DNA of 9,346 nt, from IMG/VR virus record IMGVR_UViG_2706794670_000010, one strand, 5' to 3'. Of the stretch, positions 2,126-9,111 are shown one piece after another. The position numbers were made by a program, and so were the translations under genes. The notes under the pieces are model-generated. The model saw only the letters and a list, made by a program, of their open reading frames with translations. It ran no database searches and had not been told where the DNA came from. Origin of the DNA: a virus (lineage: Duplodnaviria; Heunggongvirae; Uroviricota; Caudoviricetes). Numbering within the stretch: the stretch's first letter is position 1; every line of letters starts with the position of its first letter.

Positions 2126-2161
2126 AATTATGCATTGGTAACACATCACATAGGGCGGATT

Positions 2162-2425
2162 ATGAATCTTGGAGAATATTTGCATCATTTTCATATAACC
2201 CAGAGTTCATTTGCTGAGATTGTTGGCGCATCCCAAGGGATGGTCAGCCACGTTATAACGGGGCGTGCAAAACTTACAGGAGAAAAAATATTACGTTGGT
2301 GTGAAGCAACGGGATGGGTGGTGACCCCACATGAGATTGACAGTAAAACCTACCCCAACCCAACTGACGGCTTGCCTGCTGAGTTTCAGGCTAACACACA
2401 ACCATCGGCGGGGGTTGATTCATGA
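2162..2425 (+). CDS. Cro-like / YdaS-like HTH regulator (~87 aa)
   Basis: HTH segment SSFAEIVGASQGMVSHVITGRAKLTGEK. It is the first rightward gene opposite the repressor. ATG at 2162 is preferred over the in-frame TTG at 2135. Its stop overlaps the next start as ATGA. Confidence 0.7.
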   Translation: MNLGEYLHHFHITQSSFAEIVGASQGMVSHVITGRAKLTGEKILRWCEATGWVVTPHEIDSKTYPNPTDGLPAEFQANTQPSAGVDS

Positions 2426-2847
2426 AAATCAAGCATGAACACATCCGCATGGCGATGAAAGCCTGGGCGCATCCGGACGGTGAAAAAGTTCCGGCAGCTG
2501 AAATAACCAGGGTTTATTTCGAACTGGGAATGACGTTTCCGGTTCTGCATAACGACAGCAAGCACAACACGCTTTATCTCAACACCCAAAAGATTTTCCG
2601 TTGGCTGGATAAAGACACCCCTGACGCTGTTGAAAAAATTCAGGCGTTGTTACCTGCGATCGAAAGGGCAATGCCACCTCCGCTGGTGGCTCGAATGCGC
2701 AGCCACAGTTCAGCTTATTTTCGGGAACTGGTGGAGACGCATGAACGACTGGTGAGAGACGCTGATGATTTTGTCGCAGTGGCAATCGCCGGTTTCAATC
2801 AGATGAACCGTGGTGGCCCGGCAGGAAATGCTGTGGCAGTACATTGA
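2422..2847 (+). CDS. YdaT-like (CII-analogue) prophage regulator, 141 aa
   Basis: Begins MKIKHEHI..., which I recall as characteristic of the YdaT family of Rac-type prophages. It sits in the cII position and is translationally coupled to the cro-like gene. Confidence 0.65.
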   Translation: MKIKHEHIRMAMKAWAHPDGEKVPAAEITRVYFELGMTFPVLHNDSKHNTLYLNTQKIFRWLDKDTPDAVEKIQALLPAIERAMPPPLVARMRSHSSAYFRELVETHERLVRDADDFVAVAIAGFNQMNRGGPAGNAVAVH

Positions 2848-2918
2848 CTGACAATAGCCATATCGAATCGCTCCCGGCAACTCGTGAGTAAAAAGATTCG
2901 GTATCAGAAGAGGTGAGT

Positions 2919-3593
2919 ATGGCTAACGCCTGGCTCAGATTATGGCATGACATGCCAAATGACCCTAAGTGGCGAACAATTGCCAGGGTGTCAGGGCAGC
3001 CAATTGCAACAGTGATGGCAGTGTATATCCACCTCCTGGNNNNNNNNNNNNNNNNNNNNNNNNNNNNNNNNNNNNNNNNNNNNNNNNNNNNNNNNNNNNN
3101 NNNNNNNNNNNNNNNNNNNNNNNNNNNNNNNNNNNNNNNNNNNNNNNNNNNNNNNNNNNNNNNNNNNNNNNNNNNNNNNNNNNNNNNNNNNNNNNNNNNN
3201 NNNNNNNNNNNNNNNNNNNNNNNNNNNNNNNNNNNNNNNNNNNNNNNNNNNNNNNNNNNNNNNNNNNNNNNNNNNNNNNNNNNNNNNNNACAAAATGGCG
3301 ATTGTCACGGCGCGTCACGAAATGTCACGCACATGTCACGACGAGTCACGACAGATACAGATAAAGATACAGATAAAGAAGATCAAAACACTATGGTCCA
3401 TGGCGTAAAAAACGCCACGAACCAGGCAGGGGATGTTCAGACCGTCAATCCTGGTCAGCCAGCAGGCTCGACACCGGAAGCCGATTCAGCGTATGCGCTG
3501 AAAGCCGATTCGGGCGCTGTGCAGCAGGTGATGACCGCAAGGCCGGAGCAATCACTCCAACTGCAGCAGCCTGAAGCCGATTCCGCCATTCAG
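2919..3593 (+). CDS. phage replication initiator (O-like / replisome organiser), partial: interrupted by masked run 3040-3289 and running into masked run 3594-3859
   Basis: ATG at 2919 is preceded by GAGGTGAG. The N-terminus MANAWLRLWHDMPNDPKWRTIARVSGQPIATVMAVYIHLL is typical of phage replication-initiator N-domains. The frame stays open through the visible stretch 3290-3593, which holds the iterons and a low-complexity linker. The true 3' end is not visible. Confidence 0.6.
3040..3289. other. N-masked run (250 nt), sequence unknown
   Basis: Run of n characters. ORF-track proteins crossing it are X-filled and uninformative. Confidence 1.
3304..3377 (+). repeat. candidate replication-origin iterons inside the initiator gene: GTCACG x5 phased at 10-11 bp (3304, 3314, 3324, 3335, 3345), then 12-bp direct repeat GATACAGATAAA x2 (3354-3365, 3366-3377)
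   Basis: Read directly from the sequence. Helical-period phasing of a short motif followed by an A-rich stretch inside the initiator gene parallels the lambda arrangement, where ori lies within O. The upstream extent is hidden by masking. Confidence 0.55.
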
Positions 3594-3859
3594 NNNNNNN
3601 NNNNNNNNNNNNNNNNNNNNNNNNNNNNNNNNNNNNNNNNNNNNNNNNNNNNNNNNNNNNNNNNNNNNNNNNNNNNNNNNNNNNNNNNNNNNNNNNNNNN
3701 NNNNNNNNNNNNNNNNNNNNNNNNNNNNNNNNNNNNNNNNNNNNNNNNNNNNNNNNNNNNNNNNNNNNNNNNNNNNNNNNNNNNNNNNNNNNNNNNNNNN
3801 NNNNNNNNNNNNNNNNNNNNNNNNNNNNNNNNNNNNNNNNNNNNNNNNNNNNNNNNNNN
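3594..3859. other. N-masked run (266 nt), sequence unknown; hides the end of the initiator gene and/or the start of the helicase-loader gene
   Basis: Run of n characters. Confidence 1.
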
Positions 3860-3898
3860 TGTGAATCATATTTCTGAACCGGATACCGAAATTCCGCC

Positions 3899-3919
3899 NN
3901 NNNNNNNNNNNNNNNNNNN
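3899..3919. other. N-masked run (21 nt)
   Basis: Run of n characters. Confidence 1.
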
Positions 3920-3921
3920 CT

Positions 3922-4386
3922 GACGAACTGATGACCGGGTGCACGAATTTTGTGTTCAGCGGTAAAACCGGCACCGGGAAAAATCACCTTGCAGCGGCGA
4001 TGGGTAACCGGCTGATGGCGAAGGGGCGCAGCGTGATTATCGTCACCGAGTCTGATGTCATGAGCGTGTTGCATGACAGCTACGACAACGGCAAATCCGG
4101 TGAAAAATTTTTACAGGAGCTTTGCGGGGTTGATTTGCTGGTCCTGGATGAAATAGGCATTCAGCGGGAGACGAAAAACGAGCAGGTGGTATTGCACCAG
4201 ATAATTGATCGCCGGACAGCATCACTGTGCAGTGTCGGGATGTTAACAAACCTGAATCATGCCGCAATGAGCACGCTTCTTGGTGAGAGGATTATGGACC
4301 GCATGACCATGAACGGTTGTCGGTGGGTGACGTTTAACTGGGATAGCTGGCGTTCAAATGTCAGCTTTCCGGGAGTTGTGAAGTAA
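3922..4386 (+). CDS. DnaC-like helicase loader (IstB-like AAA+ ATPase), C-terminal ~155 aa visible; 5' part lies in masked sequence
   Basis: Walker A FSGKTGTGKNHLAAA and Walker B LLVLDEIG, and the visible stretch follows my recalled DnaC sequence closely. The frame is open upstream into the N-run, and ATG at 3931 would sit only 10 residues before the Walker A, so the real start is upstream. Stop at 4384-4386. Confidence 0.8.
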   Translation, partial: DELMTGCTNFVFSGKTGTGKNHLAAAMGNRLMAKGRSVIIVTESDVMSVLHDSYDNGKSGEKFLQELCGVDLLVLDEIGIQRETKNEQVVLHQIIDRRTASLCSVGMLTNLNHAAMSTLLGERIMDRMTMNGCRWVTFNWDSWRSNVSFPGVVK

Positions 4387-6199: not shown

Positions 6200-8032
6200 A
6201 TGGCCCGCATGTTTGATACATTAGGATTTTACATTATGAATGTGCAACATTTTGATTTTTTTACAGATAATGAGTTTTCTAATCTGGAAAGATATCAAAC
6301 TTGTAAAGCCATGGCCAAAGGTTATGCGGGCAATTACAAAACCGGGCAGTCAAGGTTGATGCATGCCCGCTCATACTGCTTCAGCATCGTAGCTGCATAT
6401 TGGGATACCCTTGCAAAAAAGCAAAAAAGCAGCATTAAAATGAGGGCAGTACCGCACACTGTTTACATAGAAGACATTCCATGTGATGCACGCGAGCTCG
6501 CTGAACGAACAGGTGAGCTTATTGCTCAATTTCCGGCGGAGGACGCTGGATATCTGATTGGGTCAATTTATACGGTAATGCTGCCATCCGCTTACCGTTC
6601 GGAATTGGGGGCTTACTATACCCCCCCACCTTTGGTAGCGCGTCTCTTGGACCTGGCTGAAAAGTCTGGTGTTGATTTTTCTCATGCATCGGTTATTGAT
6701 CCTGCGTGTGGTGGCGGTGCATTTTTGGCACCAGTAGCCATTCGAATGTTAAAAAAAGACAAGGGGTCTTCCCCTGAATGGATGTTGAGGAGAATCAGTC
6801 GTCGTTTAAAGGGGATAGAGATCGATCCATTTGCGGCTTGGATGAGTTTGGTATTGCTCGAATCTGTACTAATGCCACTATGTGTAAAGGTAAAACGTAG
6901 ATTGCCTGAAGATACAATTATTGTTGCTGATGCGCTTCAGCAAGATAAATTTTCTGGTTATGATCTTGTGGTAGGGAATCCGCCTTACGGACGTGTCACT
7001 CTCGATATTAAAACGAGAGAAAAATATTCTCGTTCGTTATTTGGTCATGCAAATCTATATGGATTGTTCACCGACTTAGCTGTTCGCATGGTTAAAGAGA
7101 AAACAGGAGTTATTGCATTTCTTACGCCAACTTCTTTTCTTGGTGGGCAGTATTTCACCGCGCTGCGAACCCTTTTGACCGAAAAAACTACTCCGTATGC
7201 CCTTGATTTCGTCACTGACAGGGATGGGGTCTTTGACGATGTTCTCCAGGAAACAATGTTGACAGCATTCAAGGCGGGAGAACATAAAGTTCGGGCCCAG
7301 GTATCCTCACTTGTCCCTAAGGGGTTGAACAAAGCAAAAATTGAGAAAATAGGTAATGTTGATATAGAAAAAGGTGGAGCAACGTGGCTTTTGCCACGCG
7401 TTAAAGATGATGCCTGTTTTCTTAATGTATTAAAACAGATGTCTACGCGTTTAGCTGATCTGGGATACTCAGTCTCTACAGGTCAGTTAGTCTGGAATCG
7501 ATTTAAGTCGCAGTTGCGTACGACGAAAGGAAAAAATAGCTACCCATTAGTCTGGGCGGAATCAATAACTTCAGCTGGTTTTCGTTTTAGTGCAGACAGA
7601 AAAAATCATGTTCCCTATATCGATATAACCCCACAACAGGGTTTCCTTGTGACAAAATCTGAATGTGTGCTTGTTCAGCGGACAACATCGAAGGAACAGG
7701 ACAGAAGGATTTTAGCGGCAATTTTACCTCAGGGATTTATAGATGAAACTGGTGGCGTAGTAGTTGAAAACCATATTAATATTGTATATTCAAACGGATT
7801 GTTCTCTGCGGTTCGCCCTGATGTTATTGATATGCTACTTAATTCGCATGTTGTCGATCGGGCGTTCAGGTGTATAAGCGGAAGTGTTGCTGTTTCGGCC
7901 TATGAATTGAATTCAATCCCGTTGCCTTCTCTGGAGCAGGTGATGGAGATTCAATCGTTAATTGATGCTGGCGTCCACAGACGGATTATTGAGAGAACTA
8001 TCGCTGGTTTCTATGGAGTGATGATTGCATGA
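6200..8032 (+). CDS. gamma-class N6-adenine DNA methyltransferase (Type II R-M modification subunit), 598-610 aa
   Basis: Motif order YYTPPP (motif X), then DPACGGGAFL (motif I, AdoMet binding), then VVGNPPYG (motif IV, NPPY), then a long C-terminal target-recognition region. Start is ambiguous: ATG at 6200 or 6209, or ATG at 6236 with AGGA 9 nt upstream. Stop TGA at 8030-8032 overlaps the next ATG. Confidence 0.85.
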   Translation: MARMFDTLGFYIMNVQHFDFFTDNEFSNLERYQTCKAMAKGYAGNYKTGQSRLMHARSYCFSIVAAYWDTLAKKQKSSIKMRAVPHTVYIEDIPCDARELAERTGELIAQFPAEDAGYLIGSIYTVMLPSAYRSELGAYYTPPPLVARLLDLAEKSGVDFSHASVIDPACGGGAFLAPVAIRMLKKDKGSSPEWMLRRISRRLKGIEIDPFAAWMSLVLLESVLMPLCVKVKRRLPEDTIIVADALQQDKFSGYDLVVGNPPYGRVTLDIKTREKYSRSLFGHANLYGLFTDLAVRMVKEKTGVIAFLTPTSFLGGQYFTALRTLLTEKTTPYALDFVTDRDGVFDDVLQETMLTAFKAGEHKVRAQVSSLVPKGLNKAKIEKIGNVDIEKGGATWLLPRVKDDACFLNVLKQMSTRLADLGYSVSTGQLVWNRFKSQLRTTKGKNSYPLVWAESITSAGFRFSADRKNHVPYIDITPQQGFLVTKSECVLVQRTTSKEQDRRILAAILPQGFIDETGGVVVENHINIVYSNGLFSAVRPDVIDMLLNSHVVDRAFRCISGSVAVSAYELNSIPLPSLEQVMEIQSLIDAGVHRRIIERTIAGFYGVMIA

Positions 8033-9111
8033 ATCTGCCTGTTGTTCCCCCATTGAATGTTATCCGGGAAAGATTACAATTAATTTTCCCTGAAGGGACT
8101 GAGAATCGTGGATATTTAATTCGGGAAATAGCTGCAAAAACAATTTTTGTCATGTTTTATGCTGGTGCGGTTGAGGGGCTGGGGCGATGGATAAGGCCCA
8201 GCCAGGTTGTAAGTATGGGAGATTCGCAGGCTGCTCTTACTGATGATGCGTCCAGAGAAAGCTGGGTAAAGATGACTTTCTCTAAACAAAAGATAAGGCC
8301 TGCTGATGCATGGTATGCGGAAAATACGCGTGAGCCAATACGTGATGAAACTATAAAAAATGGCCTAATACCTTGCAATGCAATTGTTGAGCGTAAAGGT
8401 ATACCCACCACATCCTCTCGTCCTCGTTACAGTTTGAATCGCTCTTTTGCAGCACTCTTTGATGCCGGGCTTGAAGGAGATTCGCTGCTGAGTGCAATAA
8501 GTTCCTGGCAAGAAAATCATTTGAACAAAGCCGCTCTTGCTAGGTTGCGTTTATTGAAATCAGGGGCAGTGATTGCTGCTGATGCCGTAGTCGTCACTTT
8601 CCCAAATGGAGAGAAGAGAACTTTAGCTCCGGGCCCGTCAAGTACAATAGCTAAGGCCGTCATCGAAGTTTTTGCTCCTAATTTTCTTAAGAATCCAACT
8701 GTGCTCTGGTTGTCTGAATCCGGGAATAAAGTTGTTGCTCAGGATGATGTATTGGCAAAAGCATTGGGGCTGAATATTGATGCCTCAAAAGCACTTCCAG
8801 ATATTATTTTGATTGATTTGGGAGAGGACCGAACGGGTTCGGACATGCTTGTAGTTTTCACTGAAGTAGTTGCGACAGATGGGCCTATAAACAGGGAACG
8901 AAAAGTTACTCTCACTCATTTGGCTATTGACGCTGGGTTCAGCGAGAAAAATCTTGCATTCCTTACGGCATTTATGGACAGAAGTGCTCTGCCTTTTAAA
9001 AAGGCAATACCAGAATTGGCGTGGGGATCTTATGCATGGTTTGCTTCTGAACCGGAGCACTTAATTGATCTTCGGGATGGTTATCCGGTAAAGATCAGCC
9101 AGAGAAAATGA
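8029..9111 (+). CDS. putative Type II restriction endonuclease partner of the methyltransferase (possibly BsuBI/PstI-like; family unverified), 360 aa
   Basis: ATGA start/stop overlap with the methyltransferase and GGAG 10 nt upstream indicate translational coupling. Same AT-richer composition as the methyltransferase. I could not locate an unambiguous PD-(D/E)xK motif by eye, so nuclease identity is inferred from context. Confidence 0.55.
   Translation: MNLPVVPPLNVIRERLQLIFPEGTENRGYLIREIAAKTIFVMFYAGAVEGLGRWIRPSQVVSMGDSQAALTDDASRESWVKMTFSKQKIRPADAWYAENTREPIRDETIKNGLIPCNAIVERKGIPTTSSRPRYSLNRSFAALFDAGLEGDSLLSAISSWQENHLNKAALARLRLLKSGAVIAADAVVVTFPNGEKRTLAPGPSSTIAKAVIEVFAPNFLKNPTVLWLSESGNKVVAQDDVLAKALGLNIDASKALPDIILIDLGEDRTGSDMLVVFTEVVATDGPINRERKVTLTHLAIDAGFSEKNLAFLTAFMDRSALPFKKAIPELAWGSYAWFASEPEHLIDLRDGYPVKISQRK

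Follow-up and report, generated by a model that had tools for sequence, protein, structure and literature searches.

A replication origin located within the gene of its own initiator is a textbook concept. In phage lambda, oriLambda lies in the linker-coding middle of gene O, where four iterons at O nucleotides (nt) 349-433 are followed by an A/purine-rich tract of about 40 bp and an inverted repeat. The lambda iterons are 18 bp long, 20-24 bp apart, internally symmetric and bound by O dimers. In phage SPP1, gp38 (G38P) binds direct repeats inside gene 38, beside an AT-rich DNA-unwinding element, and hands over to the helicase loader and the helicase (PMC6316719). The Rac prophage of Escherichia coli K-12 carries an active origin, oriJ (PMC3945230). 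The DNA analyzed here is a stretch of 9,346 nt from a virus of the Caudoviricetes (IMG/VR record IMGVR_UViG_2706794670_000010; the whole stretch is referred to as the window), which harbors an array of GTCACG repeats within a replication-initiator gene. With a probability of roughly 0.8, this region represents a phage replication origin that lies within the initiator gene itself, in the part coding for the linker. An iteron origin at this place had been proposed in an initial annotation of the window. The proposal is supported because the repeat clusters are conserved as DNA irrespective of the reading frame, co-vary with the initiator protein, are arranged in an order like that of oriLambda and lie among replication genes.

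The GTCACG copies are located at positions 3304-3309, 3314-3319, 3324-3329, 3335-3340 and 3345-3350, all on the plus strand, and are the only ones in the window. The initial annotation had described five copies at 10-11-bp spacing, placed inside the initiator reading frame and beginning 14 bp past a masked run, and this description was confirmed in every point (Table 1). The array corresponds to nt 386-432 of the initiator open reading frame (ORF), 3' of the codons for the N-terminal domain (N-domain) and a basic helix. A total of five GTCACG in 9.3 kb is unremarkable, as 45 of 200 shuffled sequences reached this number. Their position within 47 bp is different: none of 2000 first-order Markov resamplings placed five copies of any hexamer within 50 nt, a single one reached four, and the analytic expectation for such a five-copy chain is about 1e-14. 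Tandem Repeats Finder reported the array as a 10-bp repeat at 3303-3353 with 5.0 copies. Of 81 close relatives (near-identical E. coli copies), 71 have the five iterons unchanged. Coliphage Tritos, whose complete genome has 46 kb, contains GTCACG clusters only within the initiator gene, two in number, and the other 16 sites are scattered singly.

The arrangement of the locus was compared with that of the described origins. As in lambda-type origins, the iterons occupy the linker-coding part of the initiator gene, an A/T-rich region follows directly to the right, and an inverted repeat comes next, so that the hairpin of the window takes the place of the lambda palindrome. Further likenesses are that the N-terminal DNA-binding domain and the origin travel together while C-terminal and partner modules vary, and that the initiator gene is located downstream of a cro/cII-type early region. 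The repeats themselves differ. Dyad-symmetric iterons of 18-19 bp at lambda spacing are absent, and the locus shows a non-palindromic core of 6-8 bp with a period of 10/11 bp instead. The initiator is not homologous to O either, since BLASTP gave a best E value of 0.22 over 32 amino acids (aa) and hence no detectable similarity. The term O-like, used for this gene in the initial annotation, therefore holds for function and layout but not for sequence. Two other differences from lambda are a second iteron cluster inside the sequence encoding the DNA-binding domain, and a partner in the window that is DnaC-like and not P. With oriL and gene 38 of SPP1 the locus shares direct repeats in the organizer gene next to an AT-rich element, whereas no second distant origin equivalent to oriR was seen in the complete Tritos genome.

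To assess conservation, one genome per species was scanned, which yielded 80 loci with N-domains 34-99% identical; two Pseudomonas phages and two cyanophages were included from phage records. Relatives of the N-domain from about 80 species share one order of elements, namely three to six hexamers at 10/11-bp spacing, a purine/A-rich tract and often a hairpin. About 35 species, whose N-domains are 51-100% identical and whose loci range from 34 to 69% GC, contain GTCAC(G) at ORF nt ~129/139/149/160 and a second set starting from nt ~380-480, most often at 387-430. Escherichia, Serratia, Rahnella, Bordetella, Pseudomonas, Aquitalea and Entomomonas are among these genera. Adjacent copies are 10 bp apart in 191 of 258 pairs and 11 bp apart in 35 (226 of 258 together), which fits binding on one face of the helix. 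Across loci, the second cluster starts in all three reading frames, the encoded peptides differ and the 4-nt spacers vary; the constraint therefore acts on the DNA. The Pseudomonas phage phita81A harbors both GTCACG clusters together with an N-domain that is 69% identical and an unrelated C-terminal domain, and its partner gene encodes a primase-helicase in place of the DnaC-like loader. The array thus travels with the N-domain when the C-terminal domain and the partner genes are exchanged.

The last iteron adjoins a purine/A-rich tract (Table 1). This corresponds to the initial annotation, which had noted two copies of GATACAGATAAA and an A-rich stretch directly after the iterons. The perfect 12-bp repeat was found by Tandem Repeats Finder at 3353-3379 with 2.2 copies, positions 3350-3389 form a local GC minimum of 0.30 with an AT skew of +0.64, and the encoded linker reads TDTDKDTDKED. 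The 12-bp tandem repeat is real, but it is only one allele of a length-variable purine-rich tract within the conserved architecture. Among the 81 near-identical E. coli copies this tract is a variable-number tandem repeat (VNTR) of 21, 27, 33, 39, 45, 57 or 69 nt, and the allele of the window, which has 27 nt and holds the two copies of GATACAGATAAA, is unique among them. A scan of viral contigs gave only 100%-identical E. coli copies, which were used for the VNTR statistics and not for estimates of diversity. A second cluster was identifiable in 69 loci, and in nearly all of them the last iteron adjoins a purine-rich tract. Its forms follow an AGA-N3 rhythm, such as (AGATAA)n, (AGATAC)n, (AGAGAA/AGAGGA)n, (AGAGAC)n and (AGAAGC)n. 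Family means over these loci are 0.83 purine in the tract versus 0.56 in the gene and 0.67 AT versus 0.42, and in 37 loci the tract ranks first in purine content among the 30-nt windows of the gene. The phase of the AGA occurs in all three frames (34/12/3), yielding peptides of the TDKDK-, REEERR- or QIREEE-type, and GC at third codon positions (GC3) is 0.21 in the tract compared to 0.65 in the rest of the gene (0.34 compared to 0.76 in high-GC genes). Selection for a charged linker is insufficient as the sole cause of the purine tract, given this use of three frames and the low GC3. Selection on the DNA composition of the tract therefore goes further than the peptide requires. The tract is a candidate DNA-unwinding element or spacer. 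A periodicity like that of TnnT or DnaA-trio elements was sought in the tract by eye, was not consistent and is kept as speculation only.

Slippage in a disordered, low-complexity linker could generate such repeats as a coding VNTR without any function at the DNA level. The tract does vary in copy number among close relatives, in units of 12 and 6 bp and between 21 and 69 nt, and the D/T/K-rich segment that it encodes is disordered in the AlphaFold2 (AF2) prediction. The iterons do not behave in this way. Their 10/11-bp spacing is no multiple of three. The motif appears in all three frames with differing peptides, is kept in hosts from 34% to 69% GC, and changes jointly at both clusters and in the protein, as described below. 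In addition, codon choice in the tract opposes the GC3 of its own gene. Slippage accounts for the varying length of the tract but not for the architecture, and the reading as a pure coding VNTR is largely refuted and considered highly improbable.

Just past the tract, the window contains an inverted repeat with a predicted DNA fold. Stable hairpins at this position are enriched throughout the family, with 57% of loci falling into the top 5% of windows compared to 27% of control positions (Mann-Whitney p ~1e-6). Rfam gave no match. The hairpin and the T-rich complement of the tract might together form an intrinsic terminator for leftward (antisense) transcription, the iterons being incidental. 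A consensus scan called a minus-strand site there, with 13 pairs followed by TAGTGTTTTG (3163-3193 in the relative L168, equivalent to ~3394-3424 of the window). However, this single site does not exceed chance, as shuffled sequences gave 1.8 +/- 1.4 sites, the complement of the tract is C/T-rich without a U-run in high-GC relatives, and the iterons with their co-variation are left unexplained. A terminator is consequently a most unlikely explanation of the locus. By eye, the lambda palindrome and its A-rich region look terminator-like as well.

Parts of the initiator gene are masked in the window. Their content was deduced from an alignment with L001, L002 (Tritos) and L168, three relatives in which the gene is unmasked. 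According to the initial annotation, the array might continue under the mask, and it was suggested to read positions 3040-3289 in unmasked form. Read through the relatives, nothing abuts the visible array: near-identical unmasked sequences have no further repeat copies just upstream of the equivalent of 3304. Instead of an extension, the relatives have a separate cluster where the first masked stretch starts at its 5' side, beginning 260 bp upstream of the visible array and comprising four direct copies and one inverted copy. The expectation of more repeats under the mask was in this sense justified. All 73 near-identical E. coli copies with matchable flanks contain this first cluster, as do L001, L002 and L168, and across many genera it is located at ORF nt 129/139/149/160 with the inverted copy at nt 193. 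Very probably, the first masked run of the window hides the same cluster about 260 bp upstream of the visible one. It coincides with codons that specify the last part of helix 3 and the loop preceding the winged helix (~aa 43-66). Where a first cluster exists, it uses the same hexamer as the second. The inverted copy at nt 193 is not a universal element, since it occurs in most close GTCACG-type loci but not in those of the CGAACG type. A DnaA box was also considered, as TATATCCAC lies just upstream of the first cluster, but it is not kept in the Pseudomonas relative.

Other lineages have the same layout with another hexamer, i.e. CGAACG, GTAACG, GCAACG, GGAACG or GTGACG. All these types share an invariant ACG, usually with a C after it. 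Which hexamer is present goes in step with two residues in the basic helix, which has the pattern R-x1-x-x-x2-[RK] and carries K114 and Q117 in the E. coli protein. The pair K/Q goes along with GTCACG in 34 of 36 loci, at N-domain identities of 34-100%. A, G or S combined with W, Y or F is associated with CGAACG in 15 loci, one of which has a domain 71% identical to that of E. coli. V with F, Y or H corresponds to GTAACG (6/6 loci), S with H or F to GCAACG (4/4 loci) and K/W to GGAACG. Three loci that had been left unclassified beforehand (L121, L152 and L167) possess K/Q residues, and GTCAC arrays are present in them. The repeat accordingly co-varies with its cognate initiator over five or more hexamer types.

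Because the hexamer GTAACG includes TAA in one frame, an ORF cannot accommodate three copies that are spaced strictly 10 nt apart. The arrays of this type (L107, L112, L119, L127, L129, L140, L144 and L147) are irregularly spaced, with 8, 9, 11, 12 and 21 nt being common. Here the demands of coding seem to have shaped an origin. Tracts of the (AGATAA)n form are likewise barred from one frame.

The co-variation also bears on another possible role of the phased repeats, as a centromere-like partition site or a packaging (pac) site to which some protein besides the initiator binds. Some plasmid centromeres, for example parC of plasmid R1, typically consist of short repeats arrayed at intervals of about 10-11 bp. 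In the present module, however, the repeat type varies together with residues of the initiator and the array travels with the N-domain, no genes of the ParA, ParB or ParR type are found in the module, and the terminase of Tritos is encoded 30 kb away. Partition or packaging is thus very unlikely to be the role of the repeats.

For the proposed origin, the following sequence of events can be envisaged. After prophage induction, the early rightward transcript would lead to synthesis of the initiator. Its winged-helix domain and basic helix would bind the phased GTCACG iterons as monomers, head-to-tail and on one helix face; the binding sites would comprise the five visible iterons plus about four more and the inverted copy 260 bp upstream, which are masked. 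The nucleoprotein complex would then open or distort the adjacent A/purine-rich (GATACAGATAAA)n tract, and the initiator's C-terminal domain with its DnaT-like tail would recruit the host DnaB via the phage DnaC-like loader encoded next door. What the analysis itself shows are the sequence elements, their conservation as DNA, their co-variation with the initiator, the fold class of the N-domain and the replication genes around them. From these we infer initiator binding, unwinding of the tract, helicase recruitment and origin firing.

Several points weigh against this interpretation. The support for an origin is comparative rather than experimental. The residue and hexamer counts were taken without phylogenetic (tree-based) correction, and linkage may explain part of the co-variation because no more than 30-60 nt separate the codons of the basic helix from the second cluster downstream. 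An unwinding role of the tract is uncertain, as it has about 40 bp and only ~70% AT, and in high-GC hosts it is purine-rich rather than AT-rich. Many copies of the module are located in prophages that may be defective. Finally, sites inside the gene of the initiator could serve autoregulation besides or instead of initiation.

The last point leads to the alternative that the repeats are sites of regulation only, used by the initiator or another regulator for autorepression, as a transcriptional roadblock or for handcuffing, with the origin being located elsewhere. Sites within the transcribed gene of the initiator that co-vary with the protein fit this alternative, as co-variation indicates recognition and not firing. 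The iterons of plasmids have dual roles in regulation and as origin, and the two functions are not mutually exclusive. On the other hand, the complete Tritos genome has no other motif cluster, and an A/purine-rich tract consistently accompanies the iterons, often together with a hairpin, in the same three-part order as in the proven oriLambda. Regulation without origin function is therefore improbable, though it is a stronger contender than slippage, termination or partition.

No published study of this module was found in searches for GTCACG iterons, replisome-organizer origins, the 'Eru' modules of Shiga toxin (Stx) phages and the oriJ literature, with one relevant review lying outside the coverage. 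For a class of prophages that is very common in E. coli and Shigella, the analysis indicates where replication probably starts. As origins within initiator genes are well established, the general surprise is modest. The locus belongs to a large initiator family for which no published characterization was found, and specialists would be interested in the putative code between iterons and residues and in the iterons inside the codons of the domain that would bind them. The family pattern amounts to a directly testable rule of protein-DNA recognition, in which a swap of two residues predicts a switch of the iteron. The putative origin forms a compact, portable cassette of ~130 bp that might be used in studies of phage replication, for incompatibility typing of prophages and in vector design.

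A joint reading goes further and is tentative, with somewhat less than even odds of being correct. The locus would be the type example of a large initiator family without a Pfam entry (at least 2,600 clusters at 50% identity), in which a two-residue code on a single basic helix (R-x1-x-x-x2-R) sets the xxxACG iteron (K/Q for GTC, A/W for CGA, V/aromatic for GTA and S/H for GCA). Iterons within the codons of their own DNA-binding domain would make loop and site evolve as one. The invariant AGA-N3 polypurine tract, kept for its strand asymmetry and not simply for its AT content, would be a specific loading or single-strand-binding element and not a passive unwinding region.

The initiator has 356-364 aa in the relatives L001, L002 and L168. 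An N-terminal winged-helix domain is followed by the basic helix, the linker encoded by the repeats and a C-terminal domain whose tail is DnaT-like; in the AF2 model, residues 110-130 form a helix. The protein matches phrog_3729 'replication initiation protein' (E 4e-253). The E. coli protein is labeled 'phage replisome organizer' in RefSeq, and pipelines also label the initiator 'hypothetical'. A profile search returned 2,611 clusters at 50% identity (E <= 1e-10), which are distributed among Proteobacteria and their phages. Many database entries for the initiator are 'partial' and end at 150-215 aa, in or just past the repeat region. This is consistent with short-read assemblies breaking at the segment of iterons and VNTR, and the repeats would explain why the gene is frequently fragmented.

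Concerning its affiliation, the N-terminal fold belongs to the class of winged helices typified by DnaD's N-terminal domain (NTD). Sequence searches of Pfam, NCBIfam and the PDB assigned no family to the N-domain, and the complete initiator had no Pfam match at E<0.01. Direct membership in the families of lambda O, Phage_rep_org_N or RepA_N was dropped for this reason. A weak co-linear alignment to Phage_rep_org_N/TIGR01714 exists, in which aa 5-122 correspond to model positions 1-118 of 121, but the scores of 12.7 bits for PF09681 (cut-off 23.3) and 15.3 for TIGR01714 (cut-off 49.8) are well short of the curated limits. Only two of 79 relatives match Phage_rep_org_N at E<0.01, and PHROG 'replisome organizer' families were matched at 2e-8 and 7e-7. 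RepA_N (PF06970) was neither among the matches of the E. coli protein at E values up to 10 nor among the families matched by the 79 relatives. The RepA_N plasmid initiators, such as RepA of pSK41 and pTZ2162, nevertheless share the DnaD-NTD-type winged helix, which is combined with short, direct repeats here.

The last ~24 residues of the initiator (…NHISEPDTEIPPGFRG; window 3860-3898; L001 5063-5134) resemble the C-terminal tail of E. coli DnaT, with scores of E 0.0016 in NCBIfam and E 0.019 and 0.07 for the PDB entries 6aep and 9zbt. The sequence of this tail is …HISEPDTEIPPGFRG. The resemblance suggests that the phage initiator mimics DnaT to reach DnaB/DnaC. In one database entry, the name given is 'DnaT-like ssDNA-binding domain-containing protein' itself.

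The same N-terminal winged-helix domain was also observed fused to an HNH endonuclease (PF01844/PF14279) in proteins of ~180-190 aa that have neither the basic helix nor the repeat linker (P0040, P0058, P0060, P0071, P0092, P0095, P0099 and P0118). Here the DNA-binding module is re-used in a nuclease.

The window belongs to a lambdoid (Qin/Rac-like) prophage of E. coli and represents its early-right region, the features of which are listed in Table 1. Among 5,426 complete E. coli genomes, 2,858 contain matching, near-identical DNA, and many of these are enterohaemorrhagic (EHEC); such DNA is also present in seven sequenced coliphages, Tritos and Evi among them. E. coli FDAARGOS_943 is the closest relative of the whole window (96.7% identity).

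Table 1. Location of the features of the window; positions are counted from its first letter.
Feature	Position	Strand	Remarks
ParE-family toxin gene	1046-1336	minus	
Helix-turn-helix (HTH) repressor gene	1550-2080	minus	
Cro-like gene	2135-2425		
YdaT-family gene	2422-2847		
Replication-initiator gene	2919..3919	+	partly masked; ATG at 2919; aligned to the genes of L001, L002 and L168
Iteron cluster 1 (probable), GCGTCACGaaatGTCACGcgagGTCACAttgatGTCACG and inverted CGTGAC ~30 bp downstream	3044..3115 (approximate)	+	deduced from relatives, masked in the window
Codons of the basic helix (probable), AERKRAQRERERKRE with the K114/Q117 pair	3240..3290 (approximate)	+	deduced from alignment to unmasked relatives; masked
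Iteron cluster 2, five direct GTCACG copies	3304..3350	+	10/10/11/10-bp spacing
Purine/A-rich tract with 12-bp repeat GATACAGATAAA x2 (3354-3377)	3351..3392	+	adjoins last iteron
Inverted repeat (hairpin) TGGTCCATGGCGTaaaaaACGCCACGAACCA, 31 nt	3394..3424	+	DNA fold -8.7 kcal/mol, z = -2.6; just past the tract
DnaC-like AAA+ helicase-loader gene, visible 3' part	3920..4386	+	5' part inside the third mask

The N runs that mask the window are not true to length. The run at 3041-3290 (250 N) corresponds to 253 nt in near-identical relatives, that at 3595-3859 (265 N) to 331 nt, and the third, at 3899-3919, conceals several hundred nt. Coordinates of features concealed by a mask are approximate because the runs do not keep length. 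The 336-aa ORF listed at 2913-3923 is an artefact at both ends, having a GTG start and a TGA inside the DnaC-like gene. The latter (3921-3923) is an artefact because the true 3' end of the initiator gene lies inside the third mask, which was read through as Ns.

The DnaC-like loader of the window matches IstB_IS21 and Bac_DnaA ATPase models, and its orthologue in L001 matches NCBIfam PRK12377 (E 5e-153) and DnaC (E 4.5e-89). It is followed by DUF1627 and DUF977 genes and then by a restriction-modification pair of the PstI/BsuBI type, an endonuclease and an N6-adenine methyltransferase (Eco57I/N6_Mtase matches) at 6200-8032 and 8029-9111. Together with the ParE-family toxin, this pair is defence and addiction cargo unrelated to the origin.

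In ~40 of 74 relatives, the gene downstream of the initiator encodes a helicase or helicase loader. DnaB-family proteins (16), lambda-P-like (14) and DnaC/IstB-like proteins (6) and at least five primase-helicases with Toprim/AAA_25 domains were found. Such a modular exchange of partners is what one would expect of phage replication modules. In Tritos (L170 32105-33638), the initiator and both clusters occur without an adjacent DnaC-like loader, and a 140-aa hypothetical gene follows. The module thus also exists as an 'initiator-solo' form, presumably using host DnaC. Two loci from Serratia and Pantoea (L130 2501-3691 and L143 2501-3805) lack the basic helix and the xxxACG(C) arrays. They contain palindromic repeats of the ACTACGTA type at nt ~326-370 instead, followed by a different C-terminal part without Pfam match (…NYVYYVATTDGD…).

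The gene order of the window is that of the oriJ region of Rac (ydaU-ydaV in E. coli K-12), with repressor, Cro-like gene, ydaT, initiator and DnaC-like loader in the same slots. The Rac protein YdaU differs in having another N-terminal domain (DUF1376), and the repeat sequence of its gene is another one. Direct and inverted repeats, CAGATGTTCAA and TGTTCAAACA, were observed in the middle of ydaU (L003 4472-4588) and are a candidate for the core of oriJ.

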